From positions 1,932,570 through 1,996,569 of the forward strand of contig CAWEHV010000002.1 of NCBI GenBank assembly GCA_963809035.1: a stretch of 64,000 bases of DNA, written 5' to 3'. Shown here one piece after another: positions 1-9,833 of the stretch. Origin of the DNA: an uncultured Thermoplasmata archaeon (GTDB taxonomy: Archaea > Thermoplasmatota > Thermoplasmata > Lutacidiplasmatales > UBA184). The notes under the pieces were generated by a model, which worked only from the letters and a program-made list of their open reading frames with translations, had not been told where the DNA came from and made no database searches. The position numbers were made by a program, and so were the translations under genes. Within the stretch, counting starts at the first letter, position 1, and the number at the start of each line of letters is the position of its first letter.

Positions 1-35
1 GAGGAGCGTTCTGCCCCGCTTGTGGGGCCGAGGTA

Positions 36-699
36 ATGGGTTCGCCCCCTCCTCCTCTCGCTCCGTTCCTCCCCGCACCCCCGCCTCCCCCGGGAACCCG
101 AGACGATTTCGGACGGTCTCAGGGGTCCGACTCCACTGTCGTCCTCGTCGTGGTGATCTTGGTGGTGGTCTCCGCCACGGCCATCCTCGGAGCTTTTTGG
201 TACGGCTCTCAGATCAGCTTTTGCCCAGGCTGTCCTTAGTGAGAATAACCCGATCGGCGCTGCGCTCGAGGTGGGCAATCCGATCCTCGGAAGCTGCCCG
301 GCCGCCGACACCTTTGCGCTCAATGGCTGTCAAGGCTCCACCCACTACTACTACCGGATCAGCGTCATCGACTCCACGGTCATCTTTGGGGCGGCTTGGT
401 GCCTCGTTCGATCGCCCACGGGGGCGATCGACGTCGCTCCCGGTGGTCTTGGGTTCACGATCCTCGGCCAGAACGGCACCGTCTCCGCGCAGTACGCCGT
501 AACCGGCGGCACGATGTCCATGTCCTCCGGCTGGGCCTATGCGATTGGGGAGGGGGCCGGCACGCCACTTACCGAGCTGGACACCATCGTCGTCGACATG
601 GGGACGCAGAACCCAACGGGGCTCGCCCTGGAGTTCCTCGTGCAAGGCTCGGGCGGCTACGGCTATACGGGAACCACCGCTCCCGTCTCCCTTCCCTAG
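36..699 (+). CDS. Archaeal pilin/archaellin-like membrane-anchored protein, split by a 1-nt frameshift at about 236
   Basis: ORF 36-239 has a hydrophobic helix (VVLVVVILVVVSATAILGAFW). Removing one T in TGTCCTTAGT joins it in frame to SENNPIGAALEVGNP...TIVVDMGTQNPTG...VSLP, which resembles the pilin-like proteins of Thermoplasmata. Confidence 0.55.
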
Positions 700-855
700 T
701 CCATATACTGAGGTATTGAGGTGGGTTCGCCCTCCAATGTGAAACGAGACCGTTCGACTTGTAACAGAATCCGACCGCGATGGAGATTGCCGTTCGATGC
801 CCTCCCGCAGCCAAGGATAAGACCCCCGCCCGGCTGACCTCTGAGTCCCCGAGGC

Positions 856-3800
856 ATGAAGGGCATTCGAGTCCATTCCGTCGCCGTATGGGCCGTCGTC
901 CTCTTGGCCGTCTCTTCGGCGGCGATGGTCGGTTTGGCGACGCACGCGGCCAGTTCCCCGATCTCGCTGCGGGACGGGCTGAGAGCGGCCTCGACCCCCT
1001 CGGCCCGGGAATCGCCGGAGGCGCGCGGGGGAACGGCAATCCCCGCGTTGACCAGCCGCAGCGGCCTCGAGGCAACCGGTTCGAATCCCCTCGCTCCCCC
1101 TCTGGGTCGAGGGCCGGCATCGAGCGGATGGGCCGTCTCCAACACTCTGGTGATCTACAACAACACGCTGGTCTCGGGGAACTATGAGAACTACCTGAAT
1201 GGCGCGCAGTGGGAGGGCCTCGGGTTGGCCTTTGACAATCGGAGCGGAGAGGTCTTTGTGCTCTCCCAGGGCGACGTTATCAGCGTGATCTCGGACGCGA
1301 CCAATGAGGTCGTCAATTCCTTTGGCCCCCCGGCCCTGGGAACGCCCGCCGGGATCGTCTACGATTACAAGGACAACGAGATCTTCGTCCTGTACTACGT
1401 GTACGACGCATCGAGCTACGTCCAAGTCCTCTCCGCGACCACCACCGCGGTCCTTGCGACCGTGGCGGTGGGAAACAGCTCGTTTGGGATCGCGTACGAC
1501 AGCGGCCTCGGCGAGGTCTTCGTCTCGAACCCGGAGTCCGGGAACGTGAGCGTGATCTCCACCGCCACGAACACGGTGGTGGCCTCCGTCGACCTCCCCC
1601 TGGGTACCCCGAGCAACTGGTGTACGACTCCGGCCAGAACGAAGTGTTCGCGATCAATGACCAGTACGACGCGTACCATTCGAACCTGACCGTGATCTCG
1701 GACGCGACGAACACGGTGGTCGCGACCATCGCCGTCCCGTACGGTGCCATCTCCTTGGGGTACGACAGCAAGGAGGGAGAGGTGTTCGTCGGGTCCGACA
1801 CGTACTCCTTTGGGGGCACGTGCAATGTTACCGTCGTCAACGACTCCACCGATACGATCGTGACCACGATCGACGTCGGCATCGATCCGACGGGAATCGT
1901 CTACGTCCCGACGCTCAACGAACTCTACGTGACGAACCACGGTTCGGACAACGAGAGCGTGATCTCGGACGCAACGAACACGGTAGTCGCCACCGTGTCG
2001 CTCGTCTCCGACCCCAACGCTCCGCTCTACTCCGGCCCCAACTATCCGGTCTATGACCCCGGGCAGGCCGAGGTGTGGGACTTCGGAGGGTTCCCCGGTT
2101 ACGTCGCCGCGGTCTCGACGTCGACCCACACCATCGCTGCGACGGTGTGGCTGACCTTCGCCTCGCGGTACTTTGCGTATGACAGCGCCAACCAGGAGGA
2201 GTTCCTCGTGGACTCGCTGTCCGGCTATGTCGCCGTTGTCTCGGATATGACGGACCACGTCGTGGCGGAGATCCCGGTGGGGGAGGGTGCCTACCAGGTG
2301 GCGTACGACTCGGGAAAGGGGGAGGTGTGGATCACCAACAACGGGGGACCGGGCAACATCACCGTCATTAATGCCACCACCAACACCGTGGTCGATACAT
2401 TCAGCATCCCCGGTGTCGGTCCGACGGGAATTGCCTACGACCCCGCGCTGGGAGAGATGTTCGTGGGCAACGAGTACTGCCCACCCTGCAGCAACATCAC
2501 GGTCGTCAACGATACGACGTACGACGTGGTCGGACTGGTCGCGTACTCTGGCTTCGTTCCCTTCGATCTGGCCTATGACAGCGGGAAAGGGGAGATCTTC
2601 GCCTCCAACGCCGGAGGCAACGTGAGCGTGATCGATGCCGCCACCGACACCGTCGTGGCGTCGGTCGGCACCGGCGTCTACGGCGGCTGGGGGATGGCGT
2701 ACGATAGCGGGCTGGGAGAGATGTTCCTCACCAACGTGAACGCCAACAACGTCACCGTCATTTCGGATGCGACCAACACGGTGGTGGCCAACATTCCTGG
2801 GATTGCGGGTCCGTGGGGAGCCAGCTACGACCCGGGGACGGGCGACATTTTTATCGGCACCGACGACGGATCGGCCCTCTCGGTCATTTCGGACGCGACC
2901 AATACGGTGGTGGAGTCGATCCCCGACGGAGAAGCTCCGAGCTCGGTGGCGTACGATGCCGAGACCGGCAATCTCTACACCGCGGACCAGGACGCCGGAA
3001 CGTTGCAGGTCGTCTCCCCCACGGGAGGCACCGGCCCCACCCACTATCCGGTGACATTCATCGAAACGGGTCTGCCGGCGACGACCCCTTGGACCGTCAC
3101 CTTCAACGGAACCCTGGGCACCTCGAACACGAACACGATCGGCTACTCCGTCCTAGACGGAAGCTACACCTACACGGTCGGCGCGGTGGCCGGATACGTG
3201 GTCAACGTGACCGGCGGCCCGTTGACGGTGAACGGGGCGGCCGTGGACGTGTACCTCCAGTTCACCTCGAACGGCGTTCCTACCTACACGGTGACCTTCG
3301 ACGAAACCGGCCTCCCTTCCTCCTCCACCTCATGGAAGGTGACCCTCGAGGGCACCCCACTGAGCTCGACGACAACGACGATCCAGTTCGTGGAGACCGA
3401 CGGCATGTACTCCTTCACCGTCGGCGAGGTCACCGGATACACGGCGACCCCGGCCACCGGGACCATCACCGTAAACGGAGTGTCACAGACGAAGGACATC
3501 GTCTTCACCTCGGTCTCGACCTCGCCGCCCACCTATCCCATCACCTTCACCGAGACCGGACTCCTTTCCGGGACCAGCTGGTCGGTGACGCTCGCCGGCT
3601 CCCTGCTCCCCTCGAGCACTACGACCATCGCGACCACGGACCCGAACGGAAGCTATTCCTTCTCGGTCACTTCCGTGGCCGGGTACACCGCGACGCCGGT
3701 CTCCGGCACCGTGGTCATCACAGGGGCGGCCCAGACCGTATCGATCACATTCGCCGCCTCCTCGTCCGGCACGCCCCCGCCTTCGTCACCGTCCGGATTC

Positions 3801-4130
3801 CTGGGCTTGAGCGGCTCGGAGGGGTACATACTGCTGGGCCTCCTCCTCGCCGCGATCGTCATCGCGCTCCTCTTCCTACTCCTGGGGCGGCGGTCGACCT
3901 ACCCGGTCGTGTTCACGGAGACCGGCCTCTCGCCCGGCACGCGCTGGTCGGTCCGGCTGAAGAAGGACGCAGAGTTCTCGGACACAGAGACGATCCGGTT
4001 CACGCGACCGAGCGGCACCTACGAATTCGAGGTCGCCCCCCTGGCCGGCCGCGCTCCGACCCCGGCGACCGGCTACGTCGTCGTCGAACGCGAGCCGACC
4101 GTCGTCCCCATCCGGTTCGGCGAACCCTAG
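856..4130 (+). CDS. Cell-surface YVTN/YncE beta-propeller protein with thermopsin-type Ig-like repeats and a C-terminal TM anchor; frameshift in C-run 1596-1600
   Basis: Signal peptide, many (A/V)YDSGxGExF/VSVISDATNTVVA repeats, YxVTFxETGL repeats and a TM helix (ILLGLLLAAIVIALLFLLL). ORFs 856-1689 and 1620-4130 join with +1 C. Confidence 0.85.
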
Positions 4131-4176
4131 AGCGGGCCGTCGGCCGGACGAACTCCGGGTCGGACCCTAGCGCACC

Positions 4177-4935
4177 GGCTTTGAAACTTAACCTGCGGTT
4201 CAGGGGGGTTTTGTTTCAGGCGATGGGGTTCTGGTTCACGAGCGAACCCGCCCCTTTGCCGGCACTGGAACTGAACCCTTCAAACAAGTAGCAGTACGAA
4301 CCTAGCTCTAGCCAATGGTGAGAAGATGATGGCCATGGGGGTCGTGAGGAACGTCTCTCCAGCAGCTTGGTTCTCAACCATTCTTGGGGTTGCGACCGCC
4401 CACATTGGCCTCGTCGACCTGAACCTTCCACCTGCATGGGCCGCCTTGCACGGTGGAATTACTCACGGGCTGCCCTTCTCCACCGCACCCTCCCTAAGTC
4501 TTGGACAATTTGTAGTCGTCTTCACGTTCGCGACGGTCGCGGCGGAATCCTTGGTCGACGCCCGGGTCTGGCCCGTCCAACTAGGATGCGGACTGGGACT
4601 CACGATGATTGGCTTTGCCGCTTCGGGGTGGTTCCCCGGGGTGGCCTTCGGGGATTCCTATGGGAGTCTCTGGACCATCCTGGCTGGAGTGGTGCTGGTG
4701 CTCTCCGCGGTCCTGACTCGGTTGGCTGCTCTTCGCGCCCAGCCAAGTCTGCACCGTCCTGCAGGTCCGACCTCAGAAGTCCATCCTGCGGCGGCCAAGT
4801 AGATACGTCACAACTATCCCGATCCGGACACCTCCCGCCGTCCGACACTGCGGTGGGTGGTTCAGTTTCAGGAGCGAACTGGGTGGGGAGGTTCTGTTTC
4901 AAGACCGCGAAACACGTAGGTCAAGTTTCAAAGCC
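4177..4935. mobile_element. Non-autonomous transposable cassette (MITE/MIC-like) with a passenger gene
   Basis: TIRs GGCTTTGAAACTTAACCTGCG (4177-4197) and the reverse complement of 4915-4935, GGCTTTGAAACTTGACCTACG (19/21). Flanking direct repeat TAGCGCACC (4168-4176) / TACCGCACC (4936-4944). No transposase ORF; visibly lower GC. Confidence 0.8.
4326..4802 (+). CDS. Hypothetical membrane protein (about 4 TM), passenger of the cassette
   Basis: 158-aa hydrophobic ORF filling the cassette interior; no recognisable family. Confidence 0.55.
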   Translation: MMAMGVVRNVSPAAWFSTILGVATAHIGLVDLNLPPAWAALHGGITHGLPFSTAPSLSLGQFVVVFTFATVAAESLVDARVWPVQLGCGLGLTMIGFAASGWFPGVAFGDSYGSLWTILAGVVLVLSAVLTRLAALRAQPSLHRPAGPTSEVHPAAAK

Positions 4936-4991
4936 TACCGCACCCAAGCCGTGATATAGCGGGCTCCGGTGGTGCGCTGGTCCATCCCAAA

Positions 4992-6140
4992 ATGCCCGAT
5001 TTCTCGTTGTCCGCGGAGCAGGAAAGTCTGCGGGACCTCGCCCGGAAGTTCGCCCGGACCGAGATGGCGCCCCACGCCGCGGAGTGCGACCGGACCCCTC
5101 GTTTCCCGGAGGAGATCTATCGCAAGGCCTACGACCTCGGGCTCATGAATCTCAACGTTCCCGCGGAGTACGGGGGCAGCGGCCTAGGGGTCCTCGACCA
5201 GTGCCTGATCGTCGAGGAGCTGGCCCACGCTTGCGGCGGGATGACGACCTCCGTCATCGCGAACTGCCTCGCGCTCGAGCCGATCCTGCTCGGGGGGTCG
5301 CCCGAGCAGAAGGACCGCTTCCTGAAGCCGTTCTGCGCCGAATACCAACTCGCCTCCTTCTGCCTTACCGAACCGTCGGGCGGGAGCGACGCGGGGGGCC
5401 TACAGACCCGCGCCCGTCGAGAGGGGGACCACTACGTCCTCGACGGAGAGAAGTGCTTCATCACGAACGCCCCGCACGCCTCCCTCTACACGGTGTTCGC
5501 GACCGTCGACCCGAACCTCCGCACCAAGGGCATCACGGCCTTCGTGGTCCCGCGGGCCGCGGCGGGCCTGACGACGGGAAAGGACGAGGAAAAGATGGGC
5601 CACCGCGCCTCGTCCACGAGCACGGTTCGCTTCGAGGGAGTGAACGTACCGGTCGAGGACCGACTCGGCGAGGAGGGAGGAGGGTTCTCGATCGCCATGC
5701 GGACCCTCGACCAGACGCGGACCCCGATCGGGGCGCTCGCGACCGGGATCGCACAGGCCGCCCTGGACCACGCCGCCGCCTACTCCCTCAAGCGCCAAAC
5801 GTTCGGCAAGCCGATCTCCGAACACCAGGCGATCCAGATCAAGCTCGCCAACATGGCCCAGGCCGTCCATGCGGCGCGCCTCCTGACGTGGCACGCGGCC
5901 TGGACGATCGACCACGGGGCCAAGGGGACCCTCGAGTCGTCGATCGCGAAGTGCTTCGCCTCCGACGCGGCCCTGCACGTGGCCGACGAGGCGATCCAGA
6001 CGTTCGGCGGGTACGGGTACATGAAGGAGTACCCGGTCGAAAAACTGCTCCGGGACGCGAAGCTCACCCAGATCTACGAGGGAGCGAACGAGATCCAGCG
6101 GACGGTCATCGCCCGCGAGCTGCTCCGTCAGTACGCCTGA
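4992..6140 (+). CDS. Acyl-CoA dehydrogenase
   Basis: [37 protein letters not shown] motifs. Confidence 0.95.
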
Positions 6141-6154
6141 CCCCGGAGGGCGGC

Positions 6155-6933
6155 GTGGAGATCGTCGTCTGCATCAAGCCCGTCCCCGAGGCCGAGACCC
6201 GCTTGCGCGTAGCGCCCGGCGGCCAGACCCTCGACGCAGAGGGGGTGAAGTTCGTTCTCGCTGGGTATGACGAATCCGCGCTCGAACAGGCCCTCCTCCT
6301 GAAGGAATCGGTCCCGGGGTCGAAGGTCCACGCGGTCTCCTACGGTCCGGCGCCGCGGACCGAAGAGGTACTGAGGGCGGCCATCGCTCTCGGCGCCGAC
6401 CTGGCCACCTGGGTGGAGGCGACGGCCGGCTCGGCCTCCGACCCGATCCTCGCGGCGGTAGCACTGGCCGGCGCCATCGCGGCGGTCCCGCACGACCTCG
6501 TCCTGTGCGGGAAGCAGGCCGGGGACGACGAAGCGGGCCTCGTCCCCTCCGCGCTCGGCGAGTTGCTCTCCGTCCCGGACTTCGGCTCGGTAGCGGACCT
6601 CCGGTGGGATCCCGCCTCGTCTCGCTTCAAGTTCCTCCGTTCCACCGAAGCCGGGGGAGAACGCTGGGAAGCCCCCACCCCGTGCGTCATCGGCCTCCAG
6701 CAGGCGTGGAACGACCCGCGAACGGCGAAGCTCCCGAGCATCCTCAAGTCGCGTCGGGCACTGATCGCAAAGCGTCCGTTGGAGCCGGGGCCGGCGGCCC
6801 CCATAGCGAACCGGAGAAGTTCGAGCTCCCCCCGCCCCGAACGGGGGCGCGGATGATCGAGTACAAAACCCCGGAGGAGGCCGCCCAGAAGTTGGTCCGG
6901 ATCCTTCGAGAGGAGGCCAAGGTGTTCCCGTGA
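6155..6933 (+). CDS. etfB: Electron transfer flavoprotein beta subunit; frameshift in C-run 6798-6802
   Basis: VEIVVCIKPVP, ALEQALLLKE and LCGKQAGDD motifs; the C-terminal EEAAQKLVRILREEAKV lies in the shifted frame; upstream of etfA. Confidence 0.9.
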
Positions 6934-7916
6934 CCGGCCCCCTCCTGATCGTCGGCGAGCTCCAGAACGGCCACTTGAGCGGGCCCACGCTCGAGGCGAT
7001 CACGGTCGCGCAGACGCTCGGGGGAGGCTCTGCGGCTCTGGTCGGTTTTCTCGCCGGCAGTAAGGCCCGAGCCATCGGGGTCGAGTTTGGGCGATTCGGT
7101 GTCCCCCGGATCGCGGTAGCGACGGACCCCGCGCTCGACTCGACCCCGGTCGCGGCGGTGGCCTCCTCGGTGGCTGCCGCCGCCGAGCAGGCGGGAGCCG
7201 ACATGATCCTCGTCGGGGGGACTACGTTCGGTCGTGACCTCGTGGGGCGATTGGCCATCCGATGGAACGCCGCCGTCGCCACCGGGGTCACCGAGGCGCG
7301 ACGGGACGGGGCCGTGGTCCATGTTCGCCGCCCGATCTTCGGAGGACGCGCGACCGAGACCCGTCGCCTCGAGGGACCCCACTTCGCTCTCGCCCTCCGC
7401 CCGCACGCCTTCGCCGCGCCCTCCGAAGCGGCGGTCTCCCCGGCGGTCGCTGAGGTCCCCATGATCCCCATCCCGCCGGCGCTGCTCGCTCCTCGTCGGA
7501 CCGCGACCGAGACGACCGCCCAGGGGACCGGCCCTTCGCTCGGCGACGCCTCGATCGTCGTGTCAGGAGGGAGGGGCGTGCGGGCGGCCGAGAATTTCCA
7601 GATCGTCGAGGAGCTCGCGGCGGCCCTCGGGGCCGCGGTCGGCGCCTCCCGCGCCGTCACCGACGCCGGCTGGCGACCGTCGTCGTTCCAGGTGGGCCAG
7701 ACCGGGCGCTCCGTCTCCCCCCAACTCTACATCGCGGTCGGGATCTCCGGCGCGATCCAGCACCTGGTGGGCATGCTGAGCTCCCGGGTGATCGTCGCGA
7801 TCAACTCCGACGCGGGCGCGCCGATCTTCCGGGTGGCGGATTACGGGATCGTCGGCGACCTGTTCCAGATCGTCCCGGCCCTCACGGCCGAGACCCGCCG
7901 GGTGCGCGCCGCGTAG
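6930..7916 (+). CDS. etfA: Electron transfer flavoprotein alpha subunit
   Basis: [33 protein letters not shown] motifs. Confidence 0.95.
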
Positions 7917-8448
7917 GCCGACGGGCGGCGGGCCGGGCCCACGCCGGACGACGCAGCCACAGGCGCATCTCGGCCGTCGGTTCGAACCCGAGCCGCTCGT
8001 ACACGGCCCTTCCCTGGTCGGCCGCGTGCAGAGTCACTCGGGCCGCTCCTGAGTCCCGCGCCTTCCGCACGAGCTCGAGGACGATGGCCGACGCGATCCC
8101 CTGGCGCTGGTTCTCCGGGCGGGTGTACATCGACATGATGTACGGAATGTCGCCCCGCGGGATCCCCGGGCGAGGTTCCTGGGGCATGAACCAAAGGGTG
8201 CCGGACCCGACGACCTCCGGCCCAACGGTGGCGACGTAGGCCACCGCCTCCCCGGAGCGTAGACGGGGCCGAAGCCACCGCCGGTAGGGGGCCGCATGGG
8301 CCCGGAGCTCGCGGGTCGTGTGATGCCCGATCGCGCGCCACATCTCCACGCGATGGGCCGTGAGCTCCGACAGATCGTCGAGGGTGGCCCGTCGAAGGCG
8401 GAAGCGCGGGCGCCGCAGGGGAGGCTCCTTCCGTGGACGGCCCCTCAT
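7882..8448 (-). CDS. GNAT family N-acetyltransferase
   Basis: MYTRPENQRQGIAS acetyl-CoA motif; LHA...GRAVYERLGF. Confidence 0.85.
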   Translation of the reverse strand: MRGRPRKEPPLRRPRFRLRRATLDDLSELTAHRVEMWRAIGHHTTRELRAHAAPYRRWLRPRLRSGEAVAYVATVGPEVVGSGTLWFMPQEPRPGIPRGDIPYIMSMYTRPENQRQGIASAIVLELVRKARDSGAARVTLHAADQGRAVYERLGFEPTAEMRLWLRRPAWARPAARRPTRRAPGGSRP

Positions 8449-8453
8449 CTTCG

Positions 8454-9755
8454 TCAGAAGTCAAAGGCGACATCGGCCCCGTCCTTGAGGAGCGACATCG
8501 TCGATATCCCGGCCGCCTTTTGGGCCGCGCGCAGGATCTGGCGGATCGGCCGTTTGCGGGCTCCGGTCTCGGTCAACAGCGCGTGGAAGAGCTCGGTGGC
8601 AAAGCGCGGATAGGCGGAGTAGATGCGCGGGTTCCACTTCACCCGGTCCATCTTCTCAAAGTCGCGGAAGTCGGCGAGCACGCCGGTGGATTCGAGCCGC
8701 TGGTCGTACTGGGCGAGGCGGGCCGCAGAAGCGTCCCCGGTCTTCCTCGAGGTCAGCGCCGTTTCGGCGGCCTCGAGCCCGCTGCGAACGGCGTAGTTCA
8801 TTCCCTGGATCACGATCCCGTTCGAGAAGAGGAACCCCGCCGCATCTCCGGCGACCATCCATCCGTCGCCGTGGAACGCCGCGGGGCGGCTGGCCCATCC
8901 GGAGCCGATCAGCTTCGCCCCGTACTCGACGAGTTCGGCGTCCTTCAAGCGCGCCGCGATCGTGGGGTGGAGGCGGAACTGCTCGATGAGTTCCTGGGAG
9001 TAGACTCCCCGGCCGAAGAGCGATTGGATGTTGAGGATGAGTCCCACCGAGATCGTATCCGCGTTGGTGTAGAGGAACCCTCCGCCCATCACGCCCGGCG
9101 CGAACTGGCCGGCGACCCACTCCTCCGCATGGCCCTCCCCGGGTCCGAGCTGGAATCGCTCCTCGATCCGGCCGGCGTCGAGGCGATACACCTCCTTGAT
9201 CCCGAGCTCGGTCGCCTGCCCGCTCAACCGTGGGTTGGGTCGGATCGGGGTCCCCAGCGCGAGGCGCGAGTTCGCCCCGTCCGCCAGGATCGTCACGGGG
9301 GCGGTCATCGTTTCCCCGCCCTGGACGACCCCATGCACCCGCGGCCCCTCCCAGTTCAATCGCTCCACCGGAACGCTGGTCACGACCGTCGCCCCGGCCG
9401 CCTCTGCCTTCTGGGCGAGCCAAGCGTCGGTCCGCGCCCGGAGCACGGAATGGGCCACATACGGCTCCTTCCGCCAACTCGCGTCGTCGAAATCGAAGGA
9501 GACCGCGCTGTCGGAGGTGAGGAAGCCGAACCGCTTGCGAACGATATGGCGCTCGACCGGCATCTCGTGCGACCAGCCGGGGAGGATCCGGTCGAGGTCG
9601 TGGCCCCACAGGATACCTCCCGAGAGATTCTTGACTCCCACCTCGGTGCCTCGCTCCAGCAACAGAACATTCGCCCCCCCCTGGGCGAGGCGGATCGCGG
9701 CGGAGGAGCCCGCCATTCCGGCGCCGACGACGATCACATCGAAGTCGTCGGCCAT
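8454..9755 (-). CDS. fixC: FixC-like FAD-dependent ETF:quinone oxidoreductase
   Basis: VVGAGMAG, KNLSGG, ADGANS, GIKEVY, GGGFLYTN, AGDAAG. Confidence 0.85.
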   Translation of the reverse strand: MADDFDVIVVGAGMAGSSAAIRLAQGGANVLLLERGTEVGVKNLSGGILWGHDLDRILPGWSHEMPVERHIVRKRFGFLTSDSAVSFDFDDASWRKEPYVAHSVLRARTDAWLAQKAEAAGATVVTSVPVERLNWEGPRVHGVVQGGETMTAPVTILADGANSRLALGTPIRPNPRLSGQATELGIKEVYRLDAGRIEERFQLGPGEGHAEEWVAGQFAPGVMGGGFLYTNADTISVGLILNIQSLFGRGVYSQELIEQFRLHPTIAARLKDAELVEYGAKLIGSGWASRPAAFHGDGWMVAGDAAGFLFSNGIVIQGMNYAVRSGLEAAETALTSRKTGDASAARLAQYDQRLESTGVLADFRDFEKMDRVKWNPRIYSAYPRFATELFHALLTETGARKRPIRQILRAAQKAAGISTMSLLKDGADVAFDF

Positions 9756-9833
9756 CGCGAGTGGACGGAGACCCCCCGATTTAATGGTACGCGGAAGGGG
9801 CTCGGCCCCTCGGGTTAGGGTTCCCTTCGGCGC

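Follow-up and report, generated by a model that had tools for sequence, protein, structure and literature searches.

What placed a short segment of DNA, bounded by inverted repeats and carrying one gene but no transposase, directly before the promoter region of an acyl-CoA dehydrogenase/etf operon? The segment is 759 bp long and occupies positions 4177-4935 of the stretch analysed here (the window), 64,000 nucleotides from the genome of an uncultured Thermoplasmata archaeon. It is very probably a mobile insertion cassette (MIC) of an IS5-like family of insertion sequences (ISs) that is common in uncultured Thermoplasmata of soil and peat. A preliminary description of the segment had proposed an archaeal, cargo-carrying, non-autonomous transposon derivative. 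This proposal is supported by the ends, which the segment shares with transposase-bearing elements, and by 9-bp target site duplications (TSDs).

Boundaries, ends and passenger gene of the cassette

The features of the cassette, with lengths in amino acids (aa) for proteins, are the following.

4168-4176: left copy of the TSD, 9 bp, TAGCGCACC, identical to 4936-4944 at 8 of 9 positions
4177-4935, minus strand: non-autonomous cassette (element B), 759 bp, running in the canonical sense of the family from the IRL-type (left inverted repeat) end at 4935 to the IRR-type (right inverted repeat) end at 4177
4177-4197, plus strand: left terminal inverted repeat, beta (IRR-type) end, GGCTTTGAAACTTAACCTGCG, 21 nt
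4182-4193, plus strand: terminal motif copy TGAAACTTAACC, proposed transposase-binding site, positions 6-17 of the end
4207-4238, plus strand: two subterminal motif copies, inverted relative to the terminal copy (4207-4218, GGTTTTGTTTCA; 4227-4238, GGTTCTGGTTCA)
4326-4802, plus strand: passenger gene for a membrane protein of 158 aa with four predicted helices; GGTGA stands 4 nt 5' of the ATG
4859-4901, plus strand: two subterminal motif copies in the orientation of the terminal copy (4859-4870 and 4890-4901), the alpha-type arrangement
4915-4935, minus strand: right terminal inverted repeat, alpha (IRL-type) end, including the terminal motif copy 4919-4930
4936-4944: right copy of the TSD, 9 bp, TACCGCACC, 8 of 9 identical to the left copy

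The two 21-nt arms are complementary at 19 of 21 positions (90%) and form the best inverted pair within 3900-5200. The real 1.3-kb stretch contains one inverted pair of at least 19 of 21 flanked by 9-mers that agree at 8 or more of 9 positions, and none of 20 mononucleotide shuffles of the same 1.3 kb contained an inverted pair of at least 19 of 21. The final five bases of the right TSD copy, GCACC, are those that match the empty sites of relatives. The G+C content of the element is 0.596, versus 0.664 for the contig; in a sliding profile it is 0.58-0.62 inside the element and 0.64-0.70 outside. The arms, the immediately adjoining 9-mers, the lowered G+C content and the 158-aa product had been reported in the preliminary description and are confirmed, the open reading frame (ORF) at 4326-4802 being taken as the gene. 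Other frames listed in the element are 4367-4954 (195 aa, leaving the element through its right end), 4600-4902 (100 aa), 4216-4437 (73 aa) and 4581-4754 (57 aa). A scan of 3900-5200 against Rfam gave only a chance match below threshold.

Five or six copies of a 12-nt motif (GGTTNNGTTTCA), missed in the preliminary description, are found in and beside the cassette ends. The motif (TGAAACNNAACC) constitutes positions 6-17 of every end examined, and its copies stand at matching positions in the 12 ends examined. The beta end has two inverted subterminal copies at 31/32-43 and 51/52-63 from the tip (6 ends, from different genomes). In the alpha end the two subterminal copies, at about 35-46 and 56-77, have the orientation of the terminal copy. 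In the transposase-bearing elements of two related genomes, G192 and G142, the alpha end is upstream of the transposase gene and the beta end is on the side away from it; in the cassette the beta end is at 4177 and the alpha end at 4935. Over its outer 45-65 nt, each cassette end has about 78% identity with the ends of transposase-bearing elements (G192 and others). The motif copies are candidate transposase-binding sites. The transposase would recognise three copies in each end, one at positions 6-17 and two subterminal, and the orientation of the subterminal copies would distinguish the two ends. The element would be inserted through a 9-bp staggered cut, presumably by cut-and-paste chemistry.

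No transposase gene was found in the cassette, as the preliminary description had stated: its 158-aa ORF matches no Pfam or NCBIfam model, and tblastn with the family transposase gave nothing anywhere in the genome. Nor is the cassette a miniature inverted-repeat transposable element (MITE), which is short and non-coding, since there is a conserved ORF inside. Comparison was made with 180 genomes of the taxonomic family, which comprise the window's own genome (G000) and 179 relatives. Homologues of the passenger protein were found in only two of them, G139 and G009 (E about 1e-39, 52-53% identity), the other 21 matches listed having E values of 0.009 or more. An alignment with three homologues has 49-54% identity and 51 invariant columns, including DAR and GD motifs. 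The G009 homologue lies inside a 6903-bp element of low G+C content, which belongs to a sister subfamily, has ends beginning GGCTTTGGGAC and is flanked by a perfect GCGTAGCAT duplication; the same 6.9-kb element is found at a contig end in G139. Thus the passenger, described earlier as an orphan, is not a true orphan. Its conservation marks it as a real gene, and it is a recurrent cargo of the family.

An exhaustive search of 1.84 billion representatives with the passenger protein gave only 2 matching clusters, and a word-indexed protein search gave only a 98% copy. The AlphaFold2 model has four long helices with a mean pLDDT of 49, which makes it unusable. Comparison with the Protein Atlas gave no result, the best feature score of 0.86 (DUF4383-like clusters) and TM values of at most 0.54 being below the bar. 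In the G009 element the SWIM part (99 aa) and the DDE part (349 aa) of the transposase are split between different frames (contig L112, 4722-5994); the transposase is either a pseudogene or read by frameshifting.

The transposon family that shares the ends

When the end consensus was searched in the 180 genomes with up to 3 mismatches, 13 matches were obtained in 11 of the 179 relatives, as against 8 for a reversed-pattern control. Six of the 13, in five sister genomes, have the exact first 16 nt of the end; these 16 nt of the cassette end are identical to ends in G139, G140, G142, G167 and G192. The preliminary description had called for copies of the ends with different cargo, and they occur in G192, G142, G167 and metagenome contigs. 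The inverted ends of the G192 element are 4190 bp apart and have GAGACGACC on both sides. Those of the G142 element are 5493 bp apart with CTCCCGACC on both sides. Both are perfect 9-bp duplications. Besides a transposase, the G192 element carries a ClpP-like SDH-type protease, and the G142 element a trypsin-like peptidase and a DnaJ-type zinc-finger membrane protein.

The transposase ORFs of G192 and G142 are 509 and 512 aa long and 83% identical. They match DDE_Tnp_1 (PF01609) at 1.1e-27 and SWIM at 3.4e-9, the SWIM zinc finger being N-terminal in the transposase of the autonomous relatives. The motif Y-2-R-3-E-6-K is intact and readable in the translation (YHRRSNVESVFSALK), which agrees with the IS5 family. 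Copies in the databases are mostly 406-425 aa long (about 410 aa as called, 509 aa being the longest open frame) and are named only "transposase". Among 8000 candidates scored, 1617 database proteins match at E values of 1e-20 or less, and a G192-type transposase is present in 89 of the 179 family genomes (tblastn, E values of 1e-10 or less). The latter tally, and those of the end junctions, the closest genomes and the 15-nt relic core given below, include genomes flagged as unpublished (G018, G178 and G179), on which no particular conclusion depends. The best NCBIfam model is that of the IS5 family (NF033579), with 128.3 bits against a cut-off of 140. The family termini begin GGCTTTG and the duplication is 9 bp. 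Such features are typical of the IS903 group of IS5, to which the preliminary description had related the ends; the assignment is tentative.

A 9-bp duplication flanks each of fifteen distinct complete elements related to the cassette, which range from 67 bp to 6.9 kb; it is perfect in 13. Elements of 67-1944 bp that lack a transposase and have perfect duplications are common, showing that the family holds both transposase-bearing cargo carriers and transposase-less derivatives. Some of the latter are MITE-like, with little beyond the two ends and a perfect 9-bp duplication: 67 bp in G170 (L237, 1124-1190), 87 bp in G190 (L250, 3967-4053) and 106 bp in G168 (L245, 111-216). A scan of metagenomes with a 17-nt end pattern matched at least 118 stretches, of which loci L117-L196 were read and an adjacent subterminal motif was required. 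Real ends were found in L140/L145, L172, L187, L190 and L194, and L165 also passed the filter. The remaining matches were treated as chance. Viral contigs yielded relatives of neither the transposase nor the passenger protein.

The cassette has the composition of an MIC as that term, together with "transporter IS", is defined in PMC3129680: IS-like ends, no transposase, an unrelated gene and a TSD of the family length (8 of 9 positions identical; 9 bp in 15 of 15 elements). It retains both complete ends and one passenger gene, which is also carried by the sister element.

The autonomous partner sought in the preliminary description thus exists in other genomes, as an element with a DDE_Tnp_1 and SWIM transposase. 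None was found in the cassette's own genome, where the search with the G192 transposase (tblastn) gave no match even at E values up to 1. A Pfam search of G000 for DDE_Tnp_1 gave 4 places. Three are copies of one 1.84-kb element (C2:943468-945308, about C2:1306300, and C2:2018900-2020700), which are 99.9% identical, have a 507-aa open frame and were judged to be of the IS1182 kind and unrelated to the cassette. Their ends begin GAGACTGTGTG or, as read in a second description of the same element, GAGACTGTGTGAAAAGT. The fourth place (C2:1755747-1755962) scores 20.2 bits, below the cut-off. With no transposase found in G000, the cassette would at present be stranded and could move only with a transposase arriving in trans.

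The insertion site before the probable dehydrogenase promoter

The sequence to the right of the cassette has the following features.

4945-4959, plus strand: conserved stretch CAAGCC GTG ATATAG, putative core promoter, kept in relatives; the insertion site abuts its 5' edge
4992-6140, plus strand: acyl-CoA dehydrogenase gene (Pfam match), followed by etfB and etfA
6161-6856, plus strand: etfB (Pfam match)
6930-7916, plus strand: etfA (Pfam match)

The ATG at 4992 follows the start of the stretch by 47 nt and that of its ATATAG box by 38 nt. The stretch resembles a B recognition element (BRE) followed by a TATA box and is probably the core promoter of the operon. The TSD abuts CAAGCC at 4945, which bears out the earlier statement that the insertion is just upstream of the acyl-CoA dehydrogenase/etf promoter region. 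The cassette would thus have landed in a 9-bp target directly 5' of the core promoter. As the core promoter is intact, the operon is probably still expressed. In most relatives the dehydrogenase gene and a larB-like gene (AIR carboxylase fold) are divergent neighbours, about 97 bp apart in G022. The sequence CCAAGCCGTGATATAGCG before the dehydrogenase gene was located, and is conserved, in 16 of 19 relatives. None of these 16 has an intact element end before the promoter.

The same place is occupied in other genomes. In G000, G192, G142, G167 and contig L172 the TSD stands directly before CAAGCCGTGATATAG, ending where CAAGCC begins, with the following 9-mers.

G000: TAGCGCACC and TACCGCACC
G192: GAGACGACC on both sides
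G142: CTCCCGACC on both sides
G167 (two contigs): ATCCCGACC on both sides
Metagenome contig L172: GGCGCGACC

One-ended cases that abut the larB-like side at the equivalent place are found in G139, G140 and contig L194. A scan of all prokaryotes (one genome per species) for the end heptamer, a gap of 5-13 nt and the promoter stretch gave 3 loci. The gap is 9 in each, and the junction sequences identify them as the G142, G192 and G167 cases. The end that faces the dehydrogenase gene is alpha in G000, G142 and L172 and beta in G192. From the ends on the larB-like side, the alpha end would face the gene in G167 and G139 and the beta end in L194. In a tree of the dehydrogenase gene (909 nt), a clade with support of 98/95 unites G000 with L172, which is occupied, and with G024 and G014, which are empty, G014 having a decayed end. 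G192/G140 and G142/G167 form separate pairs, and occupied genomes are interleaved with empty ones. Since the 9-mers are alike within a genome and different between genomes, the simplest reading is that at least four independent insertions occurred at the same nucleotide. The edge of the dehydrogenase promoter is a recurrent, nucleotide-precise and orientation-independent hotspot of the family.

Two observations concern neighbours of this site in other genomes. The G140 case (L078, 6038-6790) is a one-ended remnant whose larB-side end is intact and whose second end is absent; a minus-strand gene, by eye GrpB-like, fills the gap to the promoter. In G192 the dehydrogenase gene beside the 4.2-kb element (L076, 6283-7430) lies in two overlapping frames of 240 and 312 aa, and is either broken or mis-assembled.

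A second hotspot lies between the genes of a TrmB-like regulator and a TFB. It is empty in G000 (C2:842071-842079, ATGCTATAC) and is occupied by one or several elements in G009, G139, G168, G190, G077, G010, G022 and contig L187. Many tandem arrays are found between these two genes. The 180 genomes contain 33 places where a right and a left end heptamer stand opposite each other with 0-24 nt between them, and the gap is exactly 9 at 21 of the 33; one of the junctions with another gap comes from an unpublished genome. Arrays in which successive elements share one 9-mer were seen, among the examples fetched, in G077, G095, G168, G190, G170 and L187. Such arrays are accounted for if one fixed target is used repeatedly, with no recognition of resident ends. 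This explanation replaces the idea that new copies target the ends of resident ones, as there is no resident end at the dehydrogenase promoter site.

What the sites have in common was looked for in 37 distinct real flanks, of which 25 were chosen by hand after viewing, one per site and side, and 12 by an objective rule (the exact 11-nt end plus at least one subterminal motif copy). The 21 controls have the same 11-mer without subterminal motifs. Of 56 candidate rows 33 were used, leaving out junction rows, duplicates, rows already in the set and one at a contig start. The pattern W-W-A-T-A-not-A starts at +19 outside the element in 6 of the 37 real flanks and in 0 of the 21 controls, and at any other start position in at most 1 real flank. 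Windows with at least 5 of 6 positions A or T peak at +17, in 12 of 37 real flanks versus at most 2 anywhere in the controls. A smaller earlier count of flanks went in the same direction. CAAG or a near match adjoins the 9-mer at the dehydrogenase promoter, at the G111/G168 site (CAAA in G168), in G170 and in G041. Against such a signal stand the TrmB/TFB site, which has GTGTAG at that register and is not A+T-rich, and two flanks with the box 3 nt nearer. The dehydrogenase box is, moreover, the sole one tied to a gene start, and the sample was partly picked after viewing.

The family may choose its targets by reading core promoters, with the TSD ending about 9 nt 5' of a TATA-like box, where the BRE has its upstream edge, but we would put the chance of this at slightly less than even. 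Promoter-guided targeting is plausible but unproven; what is recognised could be either the sequence CAAG-N5-TATA or the bent promoter bound by TBP and TFB. If the family does insert in this way, repeated hits on one promoter would push earlier arrivals outward and give tandem arrays that share one duplication and, in time, gene islands.

The 5.2 kb between the larB-like and dehydrogenase genes of G000, as compared with about 97 bp in G022, would be one such island. The larB-like gene lies at C2:1931588-1932265. Beside it, at C2:1932324-1932350 and 246 nt before window position 1, is a decayed alpha-type end that agrees with the G192 end at about 23 of 27 positions (manual count) and is common to G024 and G014 at the same junction. 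Its 15-nt core is exact in G000, G014, G024, G192 and G015; the G015 copy was dropped as a relic of the hotspot because it is not next to a larB-like gene. The opposite end of the same layer is a feature of the window:

740-801, minus strand: probable decayed beta-type end of an older cassette (Z), tip at 801, motif copies at 760-771 and 740-751

Counted from the tip, these copies occupy positions 31-42 and 51-62, which is where intact ends have theirs. The 2.3-Mb contig contains only 4 beta-like motif pairs, two of which are those of element B and of 740-801. A gene for a zinc-ribbon membrane protein lies between the decayed alpha and beta ends, and together they are probably an older cassette (Z) of about 1047 bp in the same hotspot. 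The zinc-ribbon/transmembrane gene reads in two frames (window 3-239, 78 aa, and 271-699, 142 aa), neither of which has a Pfam match; it is either frameshifted or affected by an assembly error.

The 5.2 kb can accordingly be read as three layers: the old cassette (about 1047 bp), a block of 3.4 kb with genes for surface proteins, and the intact 759-bp cassette, which would be the youngest and the nearest to the promoter. The ends of the 3.4-kb block were looked for and not found. In G024 and G014 the block is collinear with 79-83% identity, and a more divergent zinc-ribbon gene (66-67%) is inverted beside the promoter, in G014 with a decayed end. The hotspot at the promoter edge, the two orientations found in nature and this place of the cassette in an island all go beyond the preliminary description.

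Origin of the cassette and related systems

The locus was found in sequencing runs of soil and peat metagenomes. The junctions of the window recur in runs X3, X4 and X8, from three studies, and in contig L190 (99.8% identity over 4319 nt). In X3 and X4 the flanks are identical to the window and there are 5 differences, all inside the cassette (window 4239-4449); 4 of them are in the first third of the passenger gene, and 3 are common to peat run X10. In X10 two contigs join 4177 to 4936, and 4922 (with 13 shared letters) to 4189, on opposite strands. The 759-bp unit is thus inverted between the same flanks. It differs from the window at 12 of 673 positions (1.8%), whereas the flanks have 25 differences in 269 positions (left) and 18 in 398 (right), or 4.5-9%. 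The X10 form fits either a recent arrival of the unit or an in-place flip in a diverged strain. Each run has one orientation, forward in X3, X4 and X8 and inverted in X10, although contigs can hide minorities.

Several points weigh against the identification of the segment as a mobile cassette. It is present in a single copy in its own genome and its duplication is imperfect (8 of 9). All genomes compared are metagenome assemblies. No cognate transposase was found in G000, and the transposases of DDE_Tnp_1 type in three of the four places detected there belong to an element with different ends; G000 is only 90% complete, in 2 contigs, so that a missing piece could carry the transposase. The empty site called for earlier exists in the sense that 16 relatives have no intact end before the promoter, but no empty allele of the cassette's own lineage was found, and the closest genomes, G024 and G014, have a different gene at the site. 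Lastly, transposase binding and the chemistry are putative for this cassette, and its movement in trans is suggested indirectly, by the inverted unit in X10 and by the perfect duplications of short transposase-less relatives.

The single copy would also be explained if the cassette had formed in place, by internal deletion of a transposase-bearing element, and had never moved as a 759-bp unit. Large relatives with cargo and transposase do occupy the same site in other species, and decay in place is seen nearby, in the relic ends and the one-ended G140 element. However, the inverted and much less diverged unit in X10 fits a unit that moves or flips, and the abundance of short elements with perfect duplications indicates that such derivatives are mobilised, so that this origin is unlikely. 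Less likely still is one ancient insertion that was inherited vertically and then remodelled by cargo swaps, inversions and losses. The occupied genomes do fall into three small clades in which the pairs G142/G167 and G192/G140 could each share one event, and the old decayed end by the larB-like gene of G000, G024 and G014 shows that old insertions persist at the locus. Yet parallel changes in both copies would be needed to explain 9-mers that are identical within each of G192, G142 and G167 and differ at 1-5 of 9 positions between them. Orientation differs between genomes, the cargo is unrelated, and the empty G024 stands between occupied members of its well-supported clade.

Because both orientations exist at the same junctions, the segment might instead be a switch, flipped by a site-specific recombinase to alter expression of the passenger gene or the operon. 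This is very improbable: besides the single orientation in each run, the repeats form the termini of a family of transposons flanked by 9-bp duplications, and a Pfam scan of eight ORFs in window 1-9800 found no recombinase domain, no genome-wide search having been made. It is scarcely credible that the inverted repeats arose by chance or are paired transcription-factor sites regulating the divergent region. A near-palindrome of G014 that contains TTTCAAAG in the same register upstream of the promoter would suit paired sites, but it is better read as a decayed end; the shuffles gave no comparable pair, and the same ends bound transposase-bearing elements elsewhere. A mobile cassette, inserted into a recurrent target of its family, is therefore the preferred explanation.

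The closest known counterpart of such a cassette is the MIC231/IS231 system of Bacillus cereus, to which references are listed in PMC2266710. MIC231 too has the ends of a cognate IS, lacks a transposase, carries at least one passenger gene and is flanked by a duplication. The duplication of the IS231 group is 10-12 bp in the table of PMC2266710, as compared with 9 bp for the cassette. The cassette differs also in its archaeal host, in a cognate transposase that is IS5-like with SWIM and not of the IS4 family, in having no cognate transposase in its own genome, and in an insertion site that is nucleotide-precise and recurrent. The transposase-bearing relatives of the cassette also carry extra genes, so that the family is modular. 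With the IS903 group the family would share the GGCTTTG termini, the 9-bp duplication and a transposase of DDE_Tnp_1 type. It differs in the N-terminal SWIM, the called protein of about 410 aa, the IS5 model score below cut-off, three motif copies per end in an asymmetric arrangement, frequent cargo and marked hotspots.

Insertion at a fixed distance from a conserved host signal has a parallel in the IS1202 family, whose elements insert 5 bp from the XerC side of dif/pdif sites, according to PMC10132070. The signal of the cassette family is, in contrast, promoter-like (CAAG-N5-TATA) and not a recombination site, and both orientations are used. In yeast, Ty3 is targeted to RNA polymerase III start sites through TFIIIB. 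By analogy, integration at a fixed distance from a TBP/TFIIB-like promoter complex would explain the fixed register seen here. Ty3, however, is a retroelement with an integrase, and for the cassette family direct recognition of the DNA is equally possible. No published account of the family or of such targeting was found in a literature search that was mostly outside subscription journals.

A very abundant IS family thus appears to move ordinary genes among soil and peat archaea that only metagenomes have revealed. The genes carried encode proteases, membrane proteins and probably surface proteins, among others, and the transposase-less cassettes left behind get called hypothetical genes by annotation pipelines. 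DDE insertion sequences do not usually return to one site at the edge of a core promoter, to the exact nucleotide and in either orientation. Such insertion offers a concrete mechanism by which intergenic regions may grow into islands. If the basal transcription machinery or its DNA signal guides insertion, this would be an archaeal counterpart of the promoter-targeted integration of eukaryotic retroelements. The system might also be developed for targeted insertion in archaea.

Two further repeats were noticed in G000. At C2:34731-34800 there are three GGGGTTNNGTGAC-like motif copies about 20 nt apart, unlike the ends of the family. A repeat of about 45 nt, which includes C2:1771589-1771601 and C2:1773849-1773861, is present in inverted orientation 2.27 kb apart and may mark another mobile element.

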